A DNA stretch of 32,000 nt from Promethearchaeum syntrophicum (GCF_008000775.2 NZ_CP042905.2:150001-182000), one strand, 5' to 3'; shown: positions 2 to 20,932, counted from the stretch's first letter. Made by a program: numbers and translations. The notes: generated by a model from the sequence alone, not told the origin.

Positions 2-973
2 TTAGTCCCTGATGCTCATATTGGAAAAGGAATGGGTAATAAATTTCTTTCTGATTTATCACCTGCAGATGTATTATTACATATTATAGATATTTCTGGA
101 AGTTTAGACGCTGAAGGGCAAGAAATTGATGAAGGATCGAGAGATCCAATAGAAGATATAAAGTTTTTAGAGAAAGAAATAAATTTTTGGTTTAGAGATA
201 TTCTTATAAGAAAAGATTGGCAGAAATTTGTACGGAAAATTGAACAAGAAAAATTAAGCTTTGTTGATGTGTTTTATGAACGAATGGCAGGGATTTCTGT
301 AAAAAAAGACCATATCTATTTAGCAATGAAGGAGTCTAATTTAGATTTTGAACATTTAACAGTTTGGAGTGATGAAGATATTTTACATTTTGCAACGAAA
401 CTTCGTGAAATTTCAAAACCAATTATTATTATAGCAAATAAAGTTGATAAACCGAAAGGTGAAGAACTTTTAAAAAAGATCTCAAAGATTTATAAAAATA
501 CTATCCCATGTAGTGCTTTAGCAGAACTTTGGCTAAGAAAATTTGCTGAAAAAGGAATGATTGAATATATGCCCGGGGACTCACATTTCAAGATTATTGA
601 TAAGAACGGGTTATCTTCCCAAGAAATAGGTGCCCTAAAGAATATTGAAGATAAAATATTAAATAAATTTGGGAGTTCTGGTATTCAAGAAATAATAAAT
701 TATGCAGTATTTAATGTTTTAAAACAAATAGTGGTCTATCCTGTATATGATCTTAATACATATTCTGATAAAGATGGAAATGTGTTACCAGATGCGCATC
801 TTATTGAGAGTGGTACTAAATTAAAAGATTTTGTTGATGAAAAAATTCATTCTGATTTAGCAAAAAACTTTATTTATGGAATAAATGGACGTACAAAAAT
901 GAGATTGGGTGAATCATATATTTTACAAAATCATGATATAGTTAGAATTGTGTCAGCTTCAAAAGGAAAATAG
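2..973 (+). CDS. Obg-family GTPase (Ygr210/YchF/DRG-like) with C-terminal TGS-like domain; 5' end lies outside the window
   Basis: The frame is open from position 2 (LVPDAHIGKGMGNKFLSDL, an Obg-family switch segment), so the ATG at 32 is internal. It has an NKVD G4 motif (IIIANKVDK) and a C-terminal beta-grasp/TGS-like tail (GESYILQNHDIVRIVS). Confidence 0.75.
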   Translation, partial: LVPDAHIGKGMGNKFLSDLSPADVLLHIIDISGSLDAEGQEIDEGSRDPIEDIKFLEKEINFWFRDILIRKDWQKFVRKIEQEKLSFVDVFYERMAGISVKKDHIYLAMKESNLDFEHLTVWSDEDILHFATKLREISKPIIIIANKVDKPKGEELLKKISKIYKNTIPCSALAELWLRKFAEKGMIEYMPGDSHFKIIDKNGLSSQEIGALKNIEDKILNKFGSSGIQEIINYAVFNVLKQIVVYPVYDLNTYSDKDGNVLPDAHLIESGTKLKDFVDEKIHSDLAKNFIYGINGRTKMRLGESYILQNHDIVRIVSASKGK

Positions 974-1239: not shown

Positions 1240-1312
1240 TGGACCCAGGGGAATTTGAATCCCCGACCCCCTGAGTGCAAGTCAGGTGCTCTACCAACTG
1301 AGCCATGGGCCC
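1240..1312 (-). tRNA. tRNA-Ala (anticodon UGC)
   Basis: The reverse complement reads GGGCCCATGGCTCAGTTGGTAGAGCACCTGACTTGCACTCAGGGGGTCGGGGATTCAAATTCCCCTGGGTCCA. The acceptor stem is 7 bp and includes the G3:U70 alanine identity pair. The anticodon loop is CUUGCAC and the T-loop is TTCAAAT. No CCA is encoded. It lies about 120 nt downstream of the 16S 3' end on the same strand. Confidence 0.93.
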
Positions 1313-1434
1313 TCTAAATCAAAAATTATTTGTAATTAAAAAATATTACAAAATTATTTACATTTAATATTATATCAAAAAGAACTTAAAAAAGAAAAAG
1401 AAGATCTATGGGCAAATGCCCATAGAAATGTTGT

Positions 1435-2930
<1,496 letters not shown>

Positions 2931-3564
2931 ATTGTATCGAATCCTTCCATTATTATCCGCTCACTATAGAAAAAATTATTAGAATTGACAAGTTCATTAT
3001 ATATTTGATGAAACTTGCCCGTGTTCATAACTACTTCAGTCCTATTATACCATAGGACTTCATTTTGTTTCCCAAATCTTTGGAAAGGAGTATTTCATAT
3101 CAATGGCATTTGCCGTGATCGATACTCACGCCGTTTAAGAGATGAGTAATTTGAGTCGGTAAAGACTCAAAGTATAGAATGAAAAAGAAAATATAAACAT
3201 ATCGAAACTTAGAGTGGAAAAGTCAATGCGTTTTCTTCCTACTTAAATTTTGATATTTCAATTGAAAAGTAAATAAAATTATTGGAACACAATCTTATTT
3301 AAATTTTTAGAAATATATTAGCAAACTGAAGGAACTAGAAGCATAAAATTTATTAATGTTGAAATTTGAAATGATATATAGTTTCTTTAAACTAAATTTT
3401 AAGTCTAAATTTTTAATTTATAGTTAATAAGTATTCAAATTTTTAAATCCAGGAGTAAAATATCTGCAATTTTCAACCTAATTTAGAATTTTTGTTTTTT
3501 TTTAGGTGTTTAAATATAATTATAGAGATTTTAAACCAATTGATCGGGTAGGTGATTTATAATC

Positions 3565-4560
3565 ATGCTCCAAGATGAAATAAAGAGAAATCTTGAGAAA
3601 ATTAAAGCAACAAGAGGTGTTGAAAATGTAGTTTTAACACAAAGAGATGGAAATCCAATTCATTATACTGGAATTTGGTTTTCAAAAGAAGAGATTTTTA
3701 GCATATCTGCAGCTACTTCTGCTATTTATAATTGTGGGATTGAACTTCATAAGGATAATTTGAAATATATTTTAATTGAGGGCAATAAAGCAAAAATTTT
3801 ATTATTTCCACTTAAGAATTACGGAAGTACAACTCTAAATAAAATAATCCGAGCACAAGATTTACAAGGAAACGATAACGATTTTTTTGTTGCGATAACT
3901 GCTCAAAATATGATCAATCTAGGAGGTATATTTCTCAAAACTCGTAATAGTTTAATTGAAATCAAAAAATCTCTCATTCTTTCTGGAGAATCATTCAAAC
4001 CTCCTTTAAGACATTTTTCAAAAAAAAATATTGATGAAATTATTGGATCTTCAAATGTTAGAGATGATATAAAAATTAGTGAAAATGTGCAATTATATTC
4101 CCTAAATATCCCTGAAATGATATATAAAGAATTAGATAATATTTTACGGGATCTTGGGAATCAGACCCTTGATCTCGTAAAATCATATATTGCCATTGAA
4201 GGAGGGTTTATTGTTTCTAGTTATCCCAAATTAAAAATTGATCAACATAAATTGGATTCTGAAGCTACTATGGGATATTCGCTTTTTAAAACAGCAGATA
4301 AATGTGCGTGGTTATTAAAAAAAATGCGAGTAAACTCAATTTTATTAGAATGTGTTGATAAATTTCAATTTATTAATAAAGTAGATTCAAATATTTTTTC
4401 CATTGAAATTGGTAAAGGGAGACAGAAACTAGGATTACTTCGATTAATTATACCAAGATATTGTAAAAAAATCACATCCATATTGGAAGAAGCTCGAAAA
4501 TACGAGATAAAACCTGTAAATCTAAATTTAGAAAAAATGTTTACAGAGTTAATTTTTTAA
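3565..4560 (+). CDS. Tandem Roadblock/LC7 (MglB-like) domain protein, 331 aa
   Basis: There are two Roadblock-like modules. The N-terminal one reads LEKIKATRGVENVVLTQRDGNPIHYTG...ISAATSAIYNCG...LKYILIEGNKAKILLFPL. The C-terminal one reads DLVKSYIAIEGGFIVSSYP...EATMGYSLFKTADKCAWLLK...SILLECVDKFQFINKV. An SD-like AGGTGAT lies 10 nt upstream of the ATG. This is the first gene of an operon that ends in an MglA-type GTPase. Confidence 0.7.
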   Translation: MLQDEIKRNLEKIKATRGVENVVLTQRDGNPIHYTGIWFSKEEIFSISAATSAIYNCGIELHKDNLKYILIEGNKAKILLFPLKNYGSTTLNKIIRAQDLQGNDNDFFVAITAQNMINLGGIFLKTRNSLIEIKKSLILSGESFKPPLRHFSKKNIDEIIGSSNVRDDIKISENVQLYSLNIPEMIYKELDNILRDLGNQTLDLVKSYIAIEGGFIVSSYPKLKIDQHKLDSEATMGYSLFKTADKCAWLLKKMRVNSILLECVDKFQFINKVDSNIFSIEIGKGRQKLGLLRLIIPRYCKKITSILEEARKYEIKPVNLNLEKMFTELIF

Positions 4561-4576
4561 AAAAGGAGATAATTTT

Positions 4577-5476
4577 ATGAATCTTATTGAATTATTTACA
4601 AACTCAAAAAATGAAGACATAGCATTAATCCTACATTGTCTTTTAGATAGAATTCCAATAGTAATTATTAGTTCAAATGAAGAAGAGGTTGAAAATATGA
4701 TGAATGGATTAACTAATTTGATATCTTTTCGCAATATCATGATATTTTATACAGATTTTGTTAATCTTGATGACTATAACAATTTATTAGAATCAGAAGA
4801 ATATGACATGGAAGTTCAAAGAAATATTTTTCTCTGTTATCCATTTGCTCTTGAAAAAGCTATTGAAATTTTTGAAGTTTTTAATTTTTGGATTATTGGC
4901 TGTACAAATACTGTTGAAAACAGGCCATGCTTAAACGCATTATTCAATAGATTAACTAAAAAAAATTCTCAATTTCTTCTAATAAATATACTTGAAGATT
5001 CCTTAGAAACTAGAATTGAAGGGATTAAAGGTGATAAAATAGATATTTCATTTGAAAAATCCTTATATCAGAATGCAATTAATCACACCGAAGTTGCAAT
5101 TGAAAAAATGAAAAGAATTATCTCTAAAAGGATTAACTCAAAAAAAATTTTGATTGAGGAATATGAAAATATCATGAATTTCTATTTTGAAGAGATGGAA
5201 TTAAAGGAAAACATTATAAAGAAAGAAATTACAGATTTTTATTTAGGTTCTAAAAGAACTTTGAATATTTTAACTCGTATAAAGAATTTAGAACATTTAG
5301 GATATTCAACAAGCATTTCTAGTAAGACTTTATTTTCAACTATTGCATATAATCAATCCTCGATCGAAAGAATTCTTAATTTTATAATGCAAGAGTGGAA
5401 TATGAATTATTATGCTTTATTGAATTCAAAAAAATCATCAAATTTTACAGATACATTTGAAAGTCTATGGGGTTAA
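4577..5476 (+). CDS. Hypothetical 299-aa protein between the MglB-like and MglA-like genes; the N-terminal segment resembles a core-DENN signature (weak)
   Basis: It is a long ORF in stop-rich AT DNA. AGGAG lies 8 nt upstream of the ATG. There is a 16-nt gap to the roadblock gene, and the 3' end overlaps the GTPase ORF. LFTNSKNEDIALILHCLLDRIPIVIISS...NLDDY resembles the DENN pattern LF..LS..NIL.L..ALLLERRII..SS...LLDY. The C-terminal half looks helical or coiled. Confidence 0.6.
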   Translation: MNLIELFTNSKNEDIALILHCLLDRIPIVIISSNEEEVENMMNGLTNLISFRNIMIFYTDFVNLDDYNNLLESEEYDMEVQRNIFLCYPFALEKAIEIFEVFNFWIIGCTNTVENRPCLNALFNRLTKKNSQFLLINILEDSLETRIEGIKGDKIDISFEKSLYQNAINHTEVAIEKMKRIISKRINSKKILIEEYENIMNFYFEEMELKENIIKKEITDFYLGSKRTLNILTRIKNLEHLGYSTSISSKTLFSTIAYNQSSIERILNFIMQEWNMNYYALLNSKKSSNFTDTFESLWG

Positions 5477-5480
5477 AAAA

Positions 5481-6053
5481 ATGATTGTAAATTATAAATC
5501 AAAATTGATTCAAATTAAAATTGTATATTACGGTTGTGCATTATCAGGGAAAACAACTAGTTTAAAAAGCTTATTTAATAAATTTGGAAAAAATAGAGAA
5601 CTTACATCCATTGAAACAACAACTGGAAGAACACTATTTTTTGATTTCGGGACATTGCAGATGGTTGGTGGGGATTGGATGGTAAAAATTTTAATGTATT
5701 CTGCAACTGGGCAGGATTTTTATTCATCTACAAGACCAGCAACATTATCTGGAACTGATGGGATTGTTTTTGTTATTGATTCCCAAAGAAAATATTTTGA
5801 CGATAATTATCAATCGTGGAAAGAACTACATTATTATTTTGAAGAAAATATTTTCAAAATTCCTATTGTTTTATCTTTAAATAAACGAGATTTGCCTGAT
5901 GTTATTGAAATTGATGATGTAATAACCAAATATGAATTAAATAAATTTAAAACTACCCAGATAATAGAAACTATTGCACTTTCAGGGGAAGGTGTGACAA
6001 AAACGTTCAAAAGTATAATGTCTTTGATATTTCCTTCAATTAATATTAGGTAG
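5481..6053 (+). CDS. mglA: MglA-family small Ras-like GTPase
   Basis: MIVNYKSKLIQIKIVYYGCALSGKTTSL...TTGRTLFFDF...YSATGQDFY...TDGIVFVIDSQ...NKRDLP is near-collinear with Myxococcus MglA ([26 protein letters not shown] / DRTLFFDF / TVPGQ / NKRDLP). The ORF is open from an ATG at 5457. I prefer 5481 because it aligns with the MglA N-terminus. Confidence 0.88.
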   Translation: MIVNYKSKLIQIKIVYYGCALSGKTTSLKSLFNKFGKNRELTSIETTTGRTLFFDFGTLQMVGGDWMVKILMYSATGQDFYSSTRPATLSGTDGIVFVIDSQRKYFDDNYQSWKELHYYFEENIFKIPIVLSLNKRDLPDVIEIDDVITKYELNKFKTTQIIETIALSGEGVTKTFKSIMSLIFPSINIR

Positions 6054-9230: not shown

Positions 9231-10259
9231 TTGTTCCAATCCCAATATATTATTAATCAGAACGATTCAAACATTTGTCCAGAATGTGAGTCAAAATTGA
9301 TTCAAAATGGACATGAAAATGTTTGTGAAAATTGTGGTCTAGTAATTGATTCTGTTTTATTTGTTGATAGCTTTCAATTCAATGATACTATTAATTCAGA
9401 TTTATCTACAGGAGATCAATTTGTATCTGTTGGAAAAACTATCGATAATATCTGTACTTTAGGAAGTCATATCGATTTTTTCTCAACAAAAGTATTTTGT
9501 GATTATAAACGAAAAACTATTTCTTCAAATCTTCAAAAGAAATTCAGAAAATTAAAATCGTACACTTTTCCTATAAAAATAAAAAACCATGAAACAGATT
9601 ATAGAGTTTTAAGGATATTAAATAGTATTATTAAATATTTAGGGTTGTCTTCAATAGTAAAGAATCGCGCTGCCTATTATTATCAATCAATAAAACGTCG
9701 ATCTCCATCGATTCGAAATCATATTTCGTTAATTGGTTTTTGTATTTTTTACGCTTCGAGAGAGTTTTGCTCAAATGCTCCAGTTAGTATTCGTGAAATT
9801 TGTAATATATTTAACATAAAAGGTCATAGGGTTAGTCCCAGATTAATTATAAGAGATAGTATTGATTATCAAAAATACCTAAATAAAAAAAATCATCCAC
9901 ATAGAAGTGAAGATTATATCTCAAGATTTATCAATTCAATTGTAAGCTCACCTGAAGTTGTAAATAGAATGAAGAAAAAACAATCTATTTGGACAAGAGC
10001 AATTTATAAAAACCTTTTAACAAATAAATGTAATTTTATAATTGAAAGCATTAATAAAGGGAGAAAGCGGTCATGGAACCCTTTTATTCTTGCTGGTGCA
10101 ACAGTTTATTGTGCAGATAAATTGCTTGCAAAAGAATATGATACAAAATCAATATTAACTCAAAAAATTGCTTCAAATGCAATGAATATTGCAGAATATT
10201 CAATCCGAGACCATTATGTTAAAATTCTAAAACCACTATTTGATTCTATAAACCTATAA
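9231..10259 (+). CDS. tfb: Transcription factor B (TFIIB homologue), divergent paralogue
   Basis: It has an N-terminal Zn ribbon (CPECESKLIQNGHENVCENCGLVID) followed by about 200 aa with cyclin-fold-like repeats (RAAYYYQSI...LIGFCIFYASRE; ILAGATVYCADKL...IASNAMNIAEYSIRDHY). The start is TTG, with an SD-like AGTGAT 6 nt upstream. There is no in-frame ATG near the N-terminus. Confidence 0.75.
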   Translation: MFQSQYIINQNDSNICPECESKLIQNGHENVCENCGLVIDSVLFVDSFQFNDTINSDLSTGDQFVSVGKTIDNICTLGSHIDFFSTKVFCDYKRKTISSNLQKKFRKLKSYTFPIKIKNHETDYRVLRILNSIIKYLGLSSIVKNRAAYYYQSIKRRSPSIRNHISLIGFCIFYASREFCSNAPVSIREICNIFNIKGHRVSPRLIIRDSIDYQKYLNKKNHPHRSEDYISRFINSIVSSPEVVNRMKKKQSIWTRAIYKNLLTNKCNFIIESINKGRKRSWNPFILAGATVYCADKLLAKEYDTKSILTQKIASNAMNIAEYSIRDHYVKILKPLFDSINL

Positions 10260-16077: not shown

Positions 16078-16380
16078 ATGGAAAAGACCATATTACCTTC
16101 AGAAATTGTAAATATTGAAGATATATTTTCTTCAAGGGGTAGAGCTAAAATTATTAAGTTACTCGCTTTAAGAGATGAACTAAATATTTCGAAAATTGTG
16201 GATTTAACAGGATTGAATCATTTAAGTGTAAAAACACATTTAATTTTCTTCAAAGGAATAAATTTTGTTCAAGAAAAAAAATTTGGGAGAATTAGAATAT
16301 ATAGATTTAAAACTGAAAATCTTAAAGCTAAAGCGTTAAAAAACTTAATTCAATTTTGGGAATATGAGAATGGATTATAA
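16078..16380 (+). CDS. Small ArsR-like winged-helix-turn-helix protein
   Basis: IFSSRGRAKIIKLLALRDELNISKIVDLTGLNHLSVKTHLIFFKGINFVQEKKFGRIRIYRFK has the helix-turn-helix plus wing pattern of ArsR/SmtB-type regulators. It starts 7 nt after the cdc6-like stop and overlaps the peptidase gene by 17 nt. Confidence 0.65.
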   Translation: MEKTILPSEIVNIEDIFSSRGRAKIIKLLALRDELNISKIVDLTGLNHLSVKTHLIFFKGINFVQEKKFGRIRIYRFKTENLKAKALKNLIQFWEYENGL

Positions 16381-16855
16381 AATTTCTGTAAAAATCATCA
16401 TTCTTATTATTTTTCTGGCAATCTATGCAATAAATGACATTGTGAATCAAAAAGTATCAAATTTTTTTATTTTAAGTGCATGTTCTATCAATTTATTTTT
16501 GAATTTTCTTTTTGATGATAACATTTGGGGATCTTCTTTAATATATACCCCTCTTTTTATAATTTCATTATATTATTGGAAAAAGGGATATATCGGAGGA
16601 GGAGATCTAAAATCTATTATGGTAGTTCTATATTTTATAAATTTTGAATATTCAGTATCAATTTGCTTATTAATTGATAAAAAAACACCAGATATTATTG
16701 AGCTTTTTATTTTTTTTTTCCTTTTATTAGCAATAAAAAAGCCAAATCTAATATCAATATTATTTGAAAACCCAAATATTTATAAAATTAAATCAGAAAA
16801 ATACTCAATATTACCCTATTTTTTTATTTCTTATCTATTGGCTTTAATATTTTAA
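16364..16855 (+). CDS. Prepilin/preflagellin peptidase, A24 family (short TadV/CpaA/FlaK-like form)
   Basis: This is a polytopic membrane protein with the two catalytic aspartates in their usual contexts: AINDIVNQK (D25) and GYIGGGDLKS (D81, the GxGD[V/L]K motif). Confidence 0.72.
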   Translation: MRMDYKISVKIIILIIFLAIYAINDIVNQKVSNFFILSACSINLFLNFLFDDNIWGSSLIYTPLFIISLYYWKKGYIGGGDLKSIMVVLYFINFEYSVSICLLIDKKTPDIIELFIFFFLLLAIKKPNLISILFENPNIYKIKSEKYSILPYFFISYLLALIF

Positions 16856-16892
16856 TTAGAACTTTAAAAATTTTTTTCTAAGAAAAGAAACA

Positions 16893-18965
16893 ATGCGAAA
16901 AAAAAAATTCAAACCAATAGTTATACTTGATGATGCAAAAGAAAAAAATACACTGAAAATCAATTGTAAAGATTGTGAAGGTAAAAAAAACATAGAAAAA
17001 TGCTTAACATGCATTCTATTTACACTAAATGAAATCAATCCTGTTAAATTTTCTGATATCTCATTAAATTCATCACTTTCTTTAAAAACTGAAGAAAAAC
17101 ACTTAATATCTCTCCTATATGTTCTTTATTCCAGTTTTAAAAAAAAATTTTCATTAATTTCTTGTTCAATTGATAGGGAAACTTGTCAGAAAGAGAAAAT
17201 AAATAATATTTTTTTAAAAAAATTTAATGAAAAGGGATTTATTGATATATTGGAGTTTTTTTTCAGTCAACCAATAATAGAAGGCCCATCTTCAAGCATA
17301 TCTTCACCTTGTTATCTATGTTTAAAAAGAATTACTAAAAAACTTAGATTTTTTCAAAGAATTTATAAAAATTCCCATTTCTATCAATATATTTTATCAA
17401 AATATGGTATTTTAAAAATTTCAACAGATTTCTTCCGCAATCTTTTTCCCACTTTAAAGGAGAATCGTAATCATAAACCTTTTTTAATAAATATTGAAAA
17501 ATTCGATAAGCAAGAAGAATATCAGTATTTTAATCAATTGTTTGATGTAATAATTTCTAATAAAAAAAATTGTCCAGAAAGAAGGTATTTGGTAAAATAT
17601 AATATTCCAAAAAAAATATTAGATAGTTCAGAAATGCTACTAAATTTCTTTAAAAATAAATTAAATGATTTAAATTTTACAAATTTCACGAATTTAGGAA
17701 AAAAAATTTGTTATTTAAAAGATCAAATACAATCCTTGGTTCCAAATTATATCCCTGATTTGGATTTAAATGATTCAAAAAAAGTCTCTTTCATTCTTAC
17801 GATTAAATACCTTAATATTGAGAAAATTTTTCCATTATTAACTGATCCTTTTATAGAAGAAATTTTCCAGGATTCAATTGAGAATAAAATTTATATTAAT
17901 CACAATAAATATGGTCGTTGCTTGACTCATATTCAATTGGATATTAATGAATTTGAATCTTTAAAAACTCACTTGATATTAGAAAGTAAACAGAGATTAG
18001 ATGAACAACACCCAAGTTTAGTTCATTTTATGAATAATTCTTTCTTTCATTCTCGCTTTTCAATCGATATAGCACCTTCACATTGGAAAAATATTGCTTT
18101 AGATATAAGAAAATTGAACAAAATGGTTTATACACTAAGTGATCTTATTAAACTGAGAACTTTATCAATTGAAATGGCAAGTTTCTTAGTATTTTGTATT
18201 TTATTCAGAAAAAATATTACAATCGTTGGTGAAGTTAATTCTGGTAAAACAACATTCCTAAATGCTTTGGATTTGTATGCTCCTAAAGAATTTAGGAAGA
18301 TTTACGTTGAAGAAACAATTGAAACATTAGAATTCCCTACTGATTCAGCCCATCAATTGAAATATGTAGTTGATTCCGATTATAATGATGAAAATAACAG
18401 TAAGGAAAAAGAAATTTATAAGTTATTACATAGATCTGGGGATTTAATTATTTTAGGAGAGATTTTAAATAAATTAGAAACTGTAGCTCTTTTCCATTGC
18501 CTAAGTGCAGGATTAAGGGGATTTCAAACAACCCACGCATCTTCAATCCAAGGTTTAATTAATAGATGGTTAGTCCATTTTCAAATTGATAAAACTTGCT
18601 TAAATGATCTGGACGTTATAGTTATGATGAGAAAAATTGGAAATAGAAGAGTTGTTCAATCAATTAATGAAATAACTTATAACAGTCAAAGTGAAAAAGT
18701 TGAAATCTTTTCATTATTTAAATATAATCCAGTAAATGAGGAATGGGATTTACCTTTTCAGATAAAAAAATCAAAAATACTCAAGTCAATTAATAAAATA
18801 ATTAATTTTTCTCAAGATAAATATATTCGATTAATCTCTCAATTGAACAAAATTTTTATCGATGAAATTCGCCAAGATTTCCCTGATAACCGTAAGATTT
18901 TCCTTCCTTTAAAAAAAATCTATCATAATATTAAATCCATTGATCAAAATATAGGAGGGATTTAG
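16893..18965 (+). CDS. Type II/IV secretion-family ATPase (TadA/CpaF/FlaI-like) with a long N-terminal extension, 690 aa
   Basis: LTDPFIEEIFQD...IYINHNKYG is the conserved N-domain opener. Walker A is VGEVNSGKTTFLNAL, Walker B is GDLIILGEI, and the His box is LRGFQTTHASS. About 310 aa precede the conserved part, including CKDCEGKKNIEKCLTC (CxxC-x8-CxxC). Confidence 0.82.
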   Translation: MRKKKFKPIVILDDAKEKNTLKINCKDCEGKKNIEKCLTCILFTLNEINPVKFSDISLNSSLSLKTEEKHLISLLYVLYSSFKKKFSLISCSIDRETCQKEKINNIFLKKFNEKGFIDILEFFFSQPIIEGPSSSISSPCYLCLKRITKKLRFFQRIYKNSHFYQYILSKYGILKISTDFFRNLFPTLKENRNHKPFLINIEKFDKQEEYQYFNQLFDVIISNKKNCPERRYLVKYNIPKKILDSSEMLLNFFKNKLNDLNFTNFTNLGKKICYLKDQIQSLVPNYIPDLDLNDSKKVSFILTIKYLNIEKIFPLLTDPFIEEIFQDSIENKIYINHNKYGRCLTHIQLDINEFESLKTHLILESKQRLDEQHPSLVHFMNNSFFHSRFSIDIAPSHWKNIALDIRKLNKMVYTLSDLIKLRTLSIEMASFLVFCILFRKNITIVGEVNSGKTTFLNALDLYAPKEFRKIYVEETIETLEFPTDSAHQLKYVVDSDYNDENNSKEKEIYKLLHRSGDLIILGEILNKLETVALFHCLSAGLRGFQTTHASSIQGLINRWLVHFQIDKTCLNDLDVIVMMRKIGNRRVVQSINEITYNSQSEKVEIFSLFKYNPVNEEWDLPFQIKKSKILKSINKIINFSQDKYIRLISQLNKIFIDEIRQDFPDNRKIFLPLKKIYHNIKSIDQNIGGI

Positions 18966-18998
18966 AAAATTTCAGAAATTTTAGAAAAATTATTAATA

Positions 18999-19388
18999 AT
19001 GACATTTGGATTAACGATGTTTTTAATCATTTTCCAATTTCTAAATCCTATATTTTTGATGTTTACTCCTCTATATACCGAAGATAAACAAGATTTAGAC
19101 TATATTCATTCAGATTTGGAAAATTTTGCAAATTCGATAACAGTATTTAATAATAATAATGATCAAGAAGATTTTTTCTTAAATTTTACTTATCCTGGAA
19201 AGATCTCTGTTATTACTGACCACTACAACGAAGATATAACTACTTTGCTCTTTAGATTTTCTAATAATCGAACTATTTATAAGGAATTTCAAGTTTCTAG
19301 CGAATTTAACATTGAAATCGAAAATATATTTATTAAACAATACAACATCCGATTTTTAAATAATTCGAAGTTTATAATTTTTATCTAA
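18999..19388 (+). CDS. Hypothetical N-terminally membrane-anchored protein in the pilus locus
   Basis: It has an N-terminal hydrophobic helix (MTFGLTMFLIIFQFLNPIFLMF) followed by a soluble, beta-rich-looking domain. It sits between the ATPase and the platform-like gene. No motif was recognised, and there is no clear class III signal. Confidence 0.4.
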   Translation: MTFGLTMFLIIFQFLNPIFLMFTPLYTEDKQDLDYIHSDLENFANSITVFNNNNDQEDFFLNFTYPGKISVITDHYNEDITTLLFRFSNNRTIYKEFQVSSEFNIEIENIFIKQYNIRFLNNSKFIIFI

Positions 19389-19396
19389 AGAGATTA

Positions 19397-20932
19397 GTGA
19401 ATCTAATGACTTGGAAAAGCGAATTTCTTCAAAAATTTACATTTTTATGTCAGAAATTTCATACTTCAATTGAATTCATGAAAGAGCTGGAAGAAGATAT
19501 TAGTAATTATGATGAAATAATTTTACATGAGTTTAGTTTATCTTACAATCAAAGAAGGAAAGGAGCAATTGCAATTACACTTGTTTATTTATTTTTAATT
19601 AACCTTGTATACATTATTTTTTCATTTTCTTTGTCTTTTTTTTTCATTTTCATTACTCTAGGTCTCATGATATATATATATTTACTTGATATCCATAAGA
19701 ATTTTGTCCAATTTAAAGAAAATTCTAACACTAACAAATATCATTTTTTATCATTACAAATGAATATAATTTTATTGAGTATCAAAGAAATGGAAGATAA
19801 AAACTTAATTCTAATGGAGATTTTAGAACAAGAACCCGAAATTGGAATTAATATTCGAAAAGTTTTATCTAAAATTAATTTGGGACATAATATCAAGAAC
19901 AATTTGAAAAATATAATTTTTTACTCCCCTTCATTTAACGTATATTTTAGAGATCTCCTAGAATCGAATTATAATTTTGAAATTATTGAAAATATTGATT
20001 CTTTCCAGAATTATTATGAAAACAAATTTGAGATTTTTATTAATTCATTAGACACTCGTTTAAGTCTCTTCTTTTTCTTCAACCTTTTTTTTCCAATTGG
20101 TTTTCTTTTTATGTTTTCCATTAATTCTCTAACATATGAGCAAGTCCTAATTGCAATATTCTTGTTTATTCTAATTCAAAAAATTTTTATCCGTAAAATT
20201 TTAAATGAAAAAATTCAACTTATTGGAGGGATTAATTCTCTAAAAAGTGAGGATAAAAAATTTTTAAAAAGTTTTTTAAAGTTTTTTTATCATTTTTCTA
20301 ATTATTTGTCTTGGAATCCTCCTGAACTTGCACTTTATCAATCAATTTTAAAATTGTCACCGAAAGAAAAATCAAAATTGAATCTTGATAAATATAATTT
20401 TAGTTTAGATTTCAAATCTTTAAACCAATTTCTAAAAACAATATTTCTTAATTTTCAATCATCTTCAGCTAAAATCTTTTATACCGTGATTAAGAGGATT
20501 TTTCGTTTAAATTCTTCTCAAAGTCCTAATCTTTTTAGAGATATGTCAAAAATTATTCACAAACATATGGAATTGGGTGACAAACAAGAAATTGCCTATA
20601 ATAGTTCTTACATCAAGGTTATAATCTTTAAAATTCTATTAGTTTTCATTTTAGGAATTTTAACACCTATAATTTATAGATTTCAAGAAATATCTCAATT
20701 GCTTTATAATTTTAATTATTTGGCAGAAATTATCGATAATATGTATAGTTTAGATAATTATTTCTTGACAATTTTTATATCTTTAATATTTATTTTTATT
20801 TCAATCCAATCGTTTAATGAAGTTTACAATTTTAAGGATAGTAAGAAACTGGATTATTTCTTAATTCTGATGTTTTTTATTTGTTTAATTACTTCAACCT
20901 TTTTGTGGAATTCACTAATATTTTTCTCATAA
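19397..20932 (+). CDS. Polytopic membrane protein, probable TadB/TadC/FlaJ-like pilus platform protein
   Basis: The protein is 511 aa, with hydrophobic clusters separated by two cytoplasmic helical regions, which is the bipartite layout expected of T2SS-F/FlaJ-type proteins. It lies immediately downstream of the secretion ATPase. The call rests mostly on context. The start is GTG at 19397 or ATG at 19406. Confidence 0.5.
   Translation: MNLMTWKSEFLQKFTFLCQKFHTSIEFMKELEEDISNYDEIILHEFSLSYNQRRKGAIAITLVYLFLINLVYIIFSFSLSFFFIFITLGLMIYIYLLDIHKNFVQFKENSNTNKYHFLSLQMNIILLSIKEMEDKNLILMEILEQEPEIGINIRKVLSKINLGHNIKNNLKNIIFYSPSFNVYFRDLLESNYNFEIIENIDSFQNYYENKFEIFINSLDTRLSLFFFFNLFFPIGFLFMFSINSLTYEQVLIAIFLFILIQKIFIRKILNEKIQLIGGINSLKSEDKKFLKSFLKFFYHFSNYLSWNPPELALYQSILKLSPKEKSKLNLDKYNFSLDFKSLNQFLKTIFLNFQSSSAKIFYTVIKRIFRLNSSQSPNLFRDMSKIIHKHMELGDKQEIAYNSSYIKVIIFKILLVFILGILTPIIYRFQEISQLLYNFNYLAEIIDNMYSLDNYFLTIFISLIFIFISIQSFNEVYNFKDSKKLDYFLILMFFICLITSTFLWNSLIFFS

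Follow-up and report, generated by a model that had tools for sequence, protein, structure and literature searches.

Near one end of a 32,000-nucleotide (nt) stretch of Promethearchaeum syntrophicum MK-D1 DNA (NZ_CP042905.2:150001-182000; hereafter the window, whose own numbering is used throughout), a gene for a 299-residue protein lies between genes encoding a tandem roadblock protein and an MglA-family small GTPase. The product of the middle gene, which is the subject of this study, is identical to QEE14854.1 / WP_147661792.1 (DSAG12_00674) and is still listed as a 'hypothetical protein' in the public annotation. A previous reading of this DNA, made from the sequence only, had placed the gene between MglB-like and MglA-like genes and had likened its N-terminal part to the core DENN domain. 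The flanking open reading frames (ORFs; 3565..4560 and 5481..6053) bear out the placement, and the N-terminus quoted in that reading is an exact match to the translation of the middle gene. The genes and features of this very AT-rich stretch (GC content about 25%) are as follows:

3509..3516, plus strand: candidate archaeal TATA box TTTAAATA, read from sequence; the roadblock ATG follows about 50 nt downstream
3565..4560, plus strand: tandem roadblock (MglB-like) protein, 331 residues; Pfam Robl_LC7
4577..5476, plus strand: DENN-like gene, 299 residues, ATG start; the translation begins MNLIELFTNSKNEDIALILHCLLDRIPIVIISSNEEEVENMMNGLTNLISFRNIMIFYTDFVNLDDY
4577..5026, plus strand: predicted core DENN-like alpha/beta domain, residues 1-150, with six strands alternating with helices; from modelled secondary structure and Foldseek
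5048..5401, plus strand: predicted all-helical d-DENN-like domain, residues 158-275; from the structural model and the span of the Foldseek alignments
5429..5473, plus strand: C-terminal tail, residues 285-299, ending in SNFTDTFESLWG; modelled without structure
5481..6053, plus strand: MglA-family small GTPase, 190 residues; phmmer against the PDB, and Pfam Arf/Ras families

Only 16 nt separate the roadblock gene from the 299-codon gene and 4 nt separate the latter from the GTPase gene, and thus the three genes are likely to form an operon. The TATA-like element TTTAAATA is a candidate promoter element for the roadblock gene, and a ribosome-binding-like GGTGA can be read about 10 nt upstream of the ATG of that gene.

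Predicted fold and family of the 299-residue protein

An AlphaFold2 (AF2) model of the protein, computed with the family alignment, is confident (predicted local distance difference test score, pLDDT, 89.4; predicted template modelling score, pTM, 0.86). In this model an alpha/beta domain (residues 1-150) is followed by an all-helical domain (residues 158-275) with helices at 158-185, 193-199, 203-240, 249-256 and 263-274, the first and third of which are long. The tail has no predicted structure, and the pLDDT falls below 50 at residues 285-292 and 294-299. A Foldseek comparison of the model with the PDB, which the sequence-only reading had named as a check of its proposal, placed DENND1B first (3tw8; E 2.6e-3, probability 1.00, 284 aligned columns), with DENND1A (6ekk; probability 0.99) near the top, together with several folliculin (FLCN) structures (3v42, 6nzd, 8dhb and 6ulg; probability 0.8-0.93, 269-289 columns). 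The alignments to DENND1B and FLCN, at 269-289 columns, take in both domains and therefore include the d-DENN-like region; d-DENN has been described as an all-alpha domain with two alpha-hairpins (PMC3521125). No longin (u-DENN) domain is present in the modelled 299-residue chain, which opens directly with the DENN core, and the tripartite DENN module is thus incomplete. We consider it highly likely that the protein adopts a DENN-type fold. Very probably, it represents a two-domain DENN plus d-DENN protein that does without the N-terminal longin (u-DENN) domain of the eukaryotic modules.

Further indications of the same kind came from a Pfam scan of all 44 members of the wide alignment. Folliculin_C and HexPS-like, with two members each, were the only families matched by more than one member, at best E-values of 4.8e-4 and 0.21, respectively. 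In particular, P0041 matched Folliculin_C at E 4.8e-4 (residues 5-62 against profile positions 4-62) and P0045 did so at E 0.015, while P0052 matched DENN itself (PF02141; E 0.093, residues 9-51 against profile positions 90-132) and the N-terminal domain of the family consensus matched Avl9, a member of the DENN clan (E 0.035). All of these matches lie below the Pfam cutoff, and all are co-linear within the N-terminal 55 or so residues (approximately 1-62), the stretch that had been flagged from the sequence.

The protein belongs to a genuine family, which counts 34 clusters at 90% identity. At 50% identity, the family profile is matched by about 100 representatives with E <= 0.001 and, among these, by 87 with E <= 1e-10; a chance ORF was rejected on this ground. 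R52 is invariant in the wide alignment, in which R25, P27, E74, W105, E160 and F269 are conserved at 90% or more; R82, also within the alpha/beta domain, is near-invariant too. The end of the unstructured tail is conserved as DTFESLWG (residues 292-299; 5450-5473). Within this motif D292, S296, W298 and G299 are invariant in alignment A1, D292 is found in 77% of the wide family, and the consensus of alignment A2 ends in SLWG. The DENN-like protein evolves faster than its two partners, with 33-51% identity (outside the close relative L007) as against about 46-65%.

Partner proteins, gene order and the adjoining 16S rRNA gene

The upstream gene encodes a protein 100% identical to a P. syntrophicum roadblock/LC7 protein, and its match to Robl_LC7 (26.9 bits, E 4.1e-6) exceeds the family cutoff of 23. 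The AF2 model of this 331-residue chain (pLDDT 78.7) shows the alpha-beta-beta-alpha-beta-beta-beta-alpha pattern twice, in roadblock domains at residues 1-139 and 184-312 that are joined by a disordered linker. Within the linker, the motif GESFKPPL (residues 141-148; 3987-4010) is invariant. Foldseek matched the model to MglB, LAMTOR2/3, Asgard roadblock structures and Mon1-Ccz1, all with a probability of 1.00; the target-normalised TM-scores are 0.8-0.88 for single-domain roadblock chains and 0.21-0.26 when the whole chain is compared with the multi-longin Mon1-Ccz1. The model resembles an MglB dimer whose halves have been joined in a single chain, in which the two domains would pair as an intramolecular pseudo-dimer. 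The GESFKPPL motif of the linker and the DTFESLWG tail of the DENN-like protein, both in regions modelled without structure, are candidate docking peptides.

The downstream gene encodes a GTPase identical to QEE14855.1 (DSAG12_00675). In a phmmer search of the PDB, the MglA proteins of Myxococcus xanthus and Thermus thermophilus were matched at E 9e-31 to 2.5e-30, as compared with 2.5e-8 for the best Arf. The P-loop reads GCALSGKT. The GTPase keeps the intrinsic switch-I arginine (GRTLFFDF, DRTLFFDF in MglA; R53 of MglA) as well as the catalytic glutamine (S-A-T-G-Q, T-V-P-G-Q in MglA; Q82 of MglA), and its G3 motif has a serine where Ras has an aspartate. Since the first residue of the GTPase to align with MglA is its second (IVNYKSK, facing FINYSSR), translation truly begins at the ATG at 5481. 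By these sequence features the GTPase is clearly MglA-type and not Rab-like.

Roadblock, DENN-like and MglA genes stand in this order, a few nt apart, in 58 of 63 species-level genome loci (L007-L069), a survey that used the narrower alignment and is biased to closer relatives, and in all six loci (L001-L006) reached through individual proteins. The linkage of homologues to mglA and roadblock genes, another check named in the sequence-only reading, is thereby upheld. Nearly all of the surveyed loci carry Asgard or archaeal labels. The two labelled bacterial, L040 and L053, come from metagenome-assembled genomes (MAGs) of Nanopelagicaceae and Patescibacteria; L040 carries an archaeal 16S sequence and L053 gave no 16S match, and both are probably mis-binned contigs. 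The five exceptions to the gene order comprise three orphan paralogues (L012, L014 and L016), a second copy in MAG YT1_007 (L069) that is rearranged, its roadblock gene being split and its MglA gene lying displaced upstream, and a locus at which the contig ends within a partial MglA match (L025). The orphan copy of L014 adjoins a glycyl-radical-enzyme-like gene. Distant family members also occur elsewhere in genomes, as two tandem paralogues (P0127 and P0110, at L070) and as a copy with no GTPase gene nearby (L071). Liu and colleagues (bioRxiv 10.1101/2020.10.19.343400; later Nature 2021) have reported, as 'conserved in most Asgard archaea', an operon whose genes encode a DENN-domain protein, a Roadblock-superfamily protein and a small GTPase other than Rag; they propose a GEF-like (guanine nucleotide exchange factor-like) role for it by analogy with FLCN, and mention paralogue expansions, in agreement with the DENN-like copies found here outside the operon.

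Upstream of the roadblock gene, the operon has a divergent neighbour:

1434..2928, minus strand: 16S rRNA gene; Rfam SSU_rRNA_archaea, 1476.8 bits

This gene marks the window as archaeal and not bacterial. A tRNA-Ala(TGC) gene follows the 16S gene (within 1240-2928, minus strand), and beyond it lies the C-terminal part of a YchF/Obg-like GTPase gene (32-973, plus strand). No 23S rRNA gene was found in the window, and the 16S and 23S genes appear to be unlinked at this locus. The 16S gene is divergently adjacent to the operon in 48 of the 63 loci, and Rfam bore out this arrangement in 11 of 12 loci; in 10 further loci the contig ends inside the spacer between the two. Only the three orphan paralogues, L069 and L053 are without the 16S gene. 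The 5' end of the 16S gene and the roadblock start lie a nearly constant 318-368 nt apart, except in the Promethearchaeum/Lokiarchaeum clade, where the distance is 560-660 nt. The surveyed genomes include some with only about 84-85% identity to the window in 16S, and the linkage thus spans at least family- to order-level divergence. No mention of it was found in the literature searched. The pairing may reflect shared regulation with ribosome synthesis, or it may only mark a slowly rearranging core region.

Downstream of the operon, a TFIIB/TFB-like gene (transcription factor B; 9231-10259, plus strand) is present in the window, and TFB is kept 2-3 kb downstream of the operon in most loci (L001-L067). 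In MK-D1 the genes between the operon and TFB encode a 124-residue membrane protein, two V4R-like proteins and a 387-residue protein (19% GC), and in the distant clade a second Arf-like GTPase (228 residues) is encoded there beside a small ORF. A type IV pilus-like cluster (16364-20932, plus strand) lies about 10 kb from the MglA-like gene and contains a prepilin peptidase (A24), a 690-residue T2SSE/PilB-like ATPase and a 511-residue ORF with no Pfam match. Bacterial MglA controls type IV pilus motility.

Possible modes of regulation

On balance, we regard it as probable that the middle gene of this Asgard operon encodes a DENN plus d-DENN protein which, together with the roadblock pseudo-dimer, controls the MglA-type GTPase. 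The MglB dimer engages a single MglA and functions as its GTPase-activating protein (GAP) by re-orienting MglA's own arginine and glutamine (PMC6785124). In the same manner, the roadblock pseudo-dimer would serve as a platform that binds the MglA-like GTPase and stimulates hydrolysis. The DENN/d-DENN protein would join this platform, so that a module of roadblock/longin, DENN and d-DENN parts would be rebuilt from two polypeptides, and would govern the GTPase's nucleotide state, the most plausible routes being promotion of GDP/GTP exchange or gating of the GAP activity. The DENN module is described as a Rab GEF in an earlier study (PMC3521125), and the best fold match of the 299-residue protein, DENND1B 3tw8, is a GEF domain solved with Rab35 bound. 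Further, exchange is promoted by the acidic C-terminal helix of MglB, which binds MglA at a distal pocket (PMC6785124); by analogy, the acidic-aromatic tail of the DENN-like protein is a candidate peptide for docking on the GTPase or on the roadblock protein. One of the two alpha5 lysines of MglA that touch the MglB C-terminal helix is conserved in the GTPase alignment. The predicted fold, the gene order, the conservation and the family assignments of the neighbours are results of the present comparisons, and from these, by analogy with the bacterial and eukaryotic systems, we infer that a complex may form, that it may have GEF or GAP-modulating activity and that the tail may take part.

Several results weigh against this reading. 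The Foldseek E-values are only about 1e-3 to 1e-1, with TM-scores of 0.3-0.5, and the ATPases TadA/CpaF, GspE and FlaI score nearly as well in the PDB search; a viral structure library gave only generic AAA or P-loop-like matches. In sequence, the 299-residue protein itself has no direct match in Pfam (at E <= 1), NCBIfam or the PDB, and no DENN match was returned for it or for the family profiles (A1 and A2) in Pfam, NCBIfam or PDB sequence searches. TNIK kinase and ferritin gave weak matches that were dismissed as short stretches of low complexity or helix. The wide-alignment homology search likewise returned only family members, none with a DENN Pfam label. When the family profiles were aligned by hhalign with the reference sequences of DENND1B, DENND1A and FLCN (confirmed beforehand against the PDB), the matches were at chance level (P = 0.12-0.6), and the hmmsearch scores against the same three proteins were equalled by 8 to 408 of the 1000 shuffled decoys made for each target. 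Some of the local hhalign alignments do fall in the register proposed from the sequence (residues 2-47 against DENND1B 169-214; WIIG against YLIG) and are not significant. The core-DENN motif seen by eye thus does not rise above chance when taken by itself, and the caution with which it had been put forward, as a short match lacking the tryptophan-containing part, was well placed. The WxxIYIP part is not conserved. The core-DENN-like assignment is sustained by the fold and the operon context, not by the motif that had suggested it. In addition, the computed evidence does not separate GEF, co-GAP and scaffold roles, and the identity of this operon with that of Liu and colleagues is a match of architecture and distribution.

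It is possible, though rather unlikely, that the protein has a DENN fold and yet is no exchange factor, and instead acts as a scaffold, a co-GAP or an effector binding the GTP form, with catalysis left to the roadblock protein. As a scaffold or co-GAP it would localise or stabilise the roadblock protein, by analogy with FLCN-FNIP and C9orf72-SMCR8, in which the DENN domains mainly mediate assembly. The GTPase keeps its intrinsic arginine and glutamine, and GAP activity could require no more than a roadblock platform, as is the case for MglA and MglB (PMC6785124). The catalytic arginine finger of the eukaryotic GAP complexes FLCN, GATOR1 and C9orf72-SMCR8 resides in longin domains, with no catalysis ascribed to the DENN portions of these complexes (PMC12290439). 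In Myxococcus there is an accessory roadblock co-GAP (PMC9481161), and RomRX, a proposed GEF, has been re-interpreted as an effector (PMC13408092). An exchange factor is favoured over these roles by the DENN module of DENND1B, the best structural match, which is a Rab GEF, and the invariant R52, with the near-invariant R25, P27, E74 and W105, forms a pattern suggestive of a surface with a specific function, as opposed to a role in structure alone.

That the protein is no DENN homologue at all appears improbable. On this reading it would be an alpha/beta domain of the P-loop NTPase or AAA+-like kind, with a helical lid, that has degenerated and no longer binds nucleotide, and its likeness to DENN would lie in a common general topology only. 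Such an origin would agree with the PDB matches to TadA/CpaF (probability 0.97), GspE, FlaI, PilT, a clamp loader and other ATPases at E 1e-2 to 1e-1, with the exclusively AAA/ATPase-like matches in the viral library and with the chance-level sequence comparison with true DENN proteins. However, matches to ATPases are to be expected of a true DENN protein, because the DENN core itself has been described as P-loop-NTPase-like in topology (PMC3521125), and near-whole-protein matches of high probability were obtained only to DENND1B, DENND1A and FLCN. Neither a Walker A (GxxxxGK[ST]) nor a Walker B motif follows strand 1 (PIVIISSNEEEVEN) or occurs elsewhere in the 299-residue protein as a remnant, and none is conserved in the family; an intact P-loop ATPase was rejected for this reason. 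The margin of Folliculin_C over HexPS-like in the Pfam scan, the DENN and Avl9 matches at the same N-terminal stretch, and genomic partners (a roadblock protein and an MglA-like GTPase) as expected for a DENN protein also speak for a DENN homologue. Finally, a lineage-specific insertion that is functionally unrelated to the flanking genes, its adjacency to them a frozen accident, would accommodate the orphan paralogues away from GTPase or roadblock genes (L012, L014, L016, L070 and L071) and is very improbable for a fold type that works with small GTPases and longin or roadblock domains and for an order kept with few-nt gaps in 58 of 63 loci down to 84-85% 16S identity.

Relation to known systems and significance

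The sequence-only reading had supposed that it would be a novelty for a prokaryotic DENN-like protein to share an operon with roadblock domains and a small GTPase, a claim that the description by Liu and colleagues in 2020/2021 anticipates. Their operon and the present one share the three genes, the same components, a wide Asgard conservation and the proposal of an FLCN-like regulator; as architecture and distribution match, the finding is a rediscovery. The two descriptions differ in that theirs refers to a 'Rab-like' GTPase and a 'LAMTOR1-like' roadblock protein, whereas here the GTPase is of the MglA family and the roadblock protein is a tandem one. In later papers DENN domains are listed among the known Asgard trafficking homologues, or the DENN fold is treated as widespread. 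Beyond the earlier description, the present analysis adds the MglA type of the GTPase, the tandem roadblock protein, the lack of a longin domain in the DENN chain, the conserved tail and linker motifs and the pairing with the 16S gene. Tran and colleagues remark that MK-D1 GTPase genes are generally not in operons with roadblock or longin genes, and the roadblock/DENN-like/MglA operon is thus a useful exception.

Among eukaryotic proteins, the DENND1A/B module resembles the 299-residue protein in having an alpha/beta core followed by a helical d-DENN, with about 280 columns aligned, and the N-terminal helix-strand-helix of the latter (LLDRIPIVIISS) falls in register with LHERRIVIISS of that module in an hhalign alignment that is not significant. 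It differs from that module in the lack of a longin domain, in the unconserved WxxIYIP part and in a partner GTPase that is MglA-type instead of Rab. The C-terminal DENN domain of FLCN is similar as well (probability 0.8-0.93; TM-score up to 0.49 when normalised to that domain). Both proteins stand alongside roadblock-domain platforms, and the two relatives that match Folliculin_C do so below threshold. In contrast to the MK-D1 chain, FLCN carries a longin domain with the catalytic arginine in cis and pairs with FNIP, and the GTPase here is not Rag-like. With bacterial MglA-MglB the operon shares the co-location of the genes, a close MglA homologue that has kept the arginine and the glutamine, and a roadblock fold with a TM-score of 0.85-0.88 to MglB (MglB-normalised). 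However, a single two-roadblock chain takes the place of the MglB homodimer, and the DENN-like gene between the two is not a feature of bacterial mglBA. No homologues of RomR or RomX were seen in the window.

It has been proposed that the longin domains of DENN modules derive from MglB-like partners of MglA-like GTPases (PMC3521125), and the MglA identity of the GTPase fits this proposal. A bolder and quite doubtful extension sees in the operon a living, 'split' ancestor of the DENN module of eukaryotes: an MglB-derived roadblock pair would stand for the longin domain, a separate DENN/d-DENN protein would provide the remainder, and the two would jointly regulate the ancestral MglA-type GTPase. 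The near-universal divergent 16S pairing, with a constant spacer of about 350 nt, would then couple the switch in its transcription to ribosome synthesis and growth. If true, the operon would be a prokaryotic forerunner of FLCN/Rag-type growth signalling.

Membrane traffic and nutrient signalling in eukaryotes have DENN modules, longin and roadblock platforms and small GTPases among their core parts, and how these arose is a standing question of eukaryogenesis. In MK-D1, a cultured Asgard archaeon, gene order identifies the cognate GTPase together with its regulators, and this operon-defined trio makes the system experimentally tractable. The system, known though it has been since 2020/2021, is real, evolutionarily relevant and experimentally attractive.

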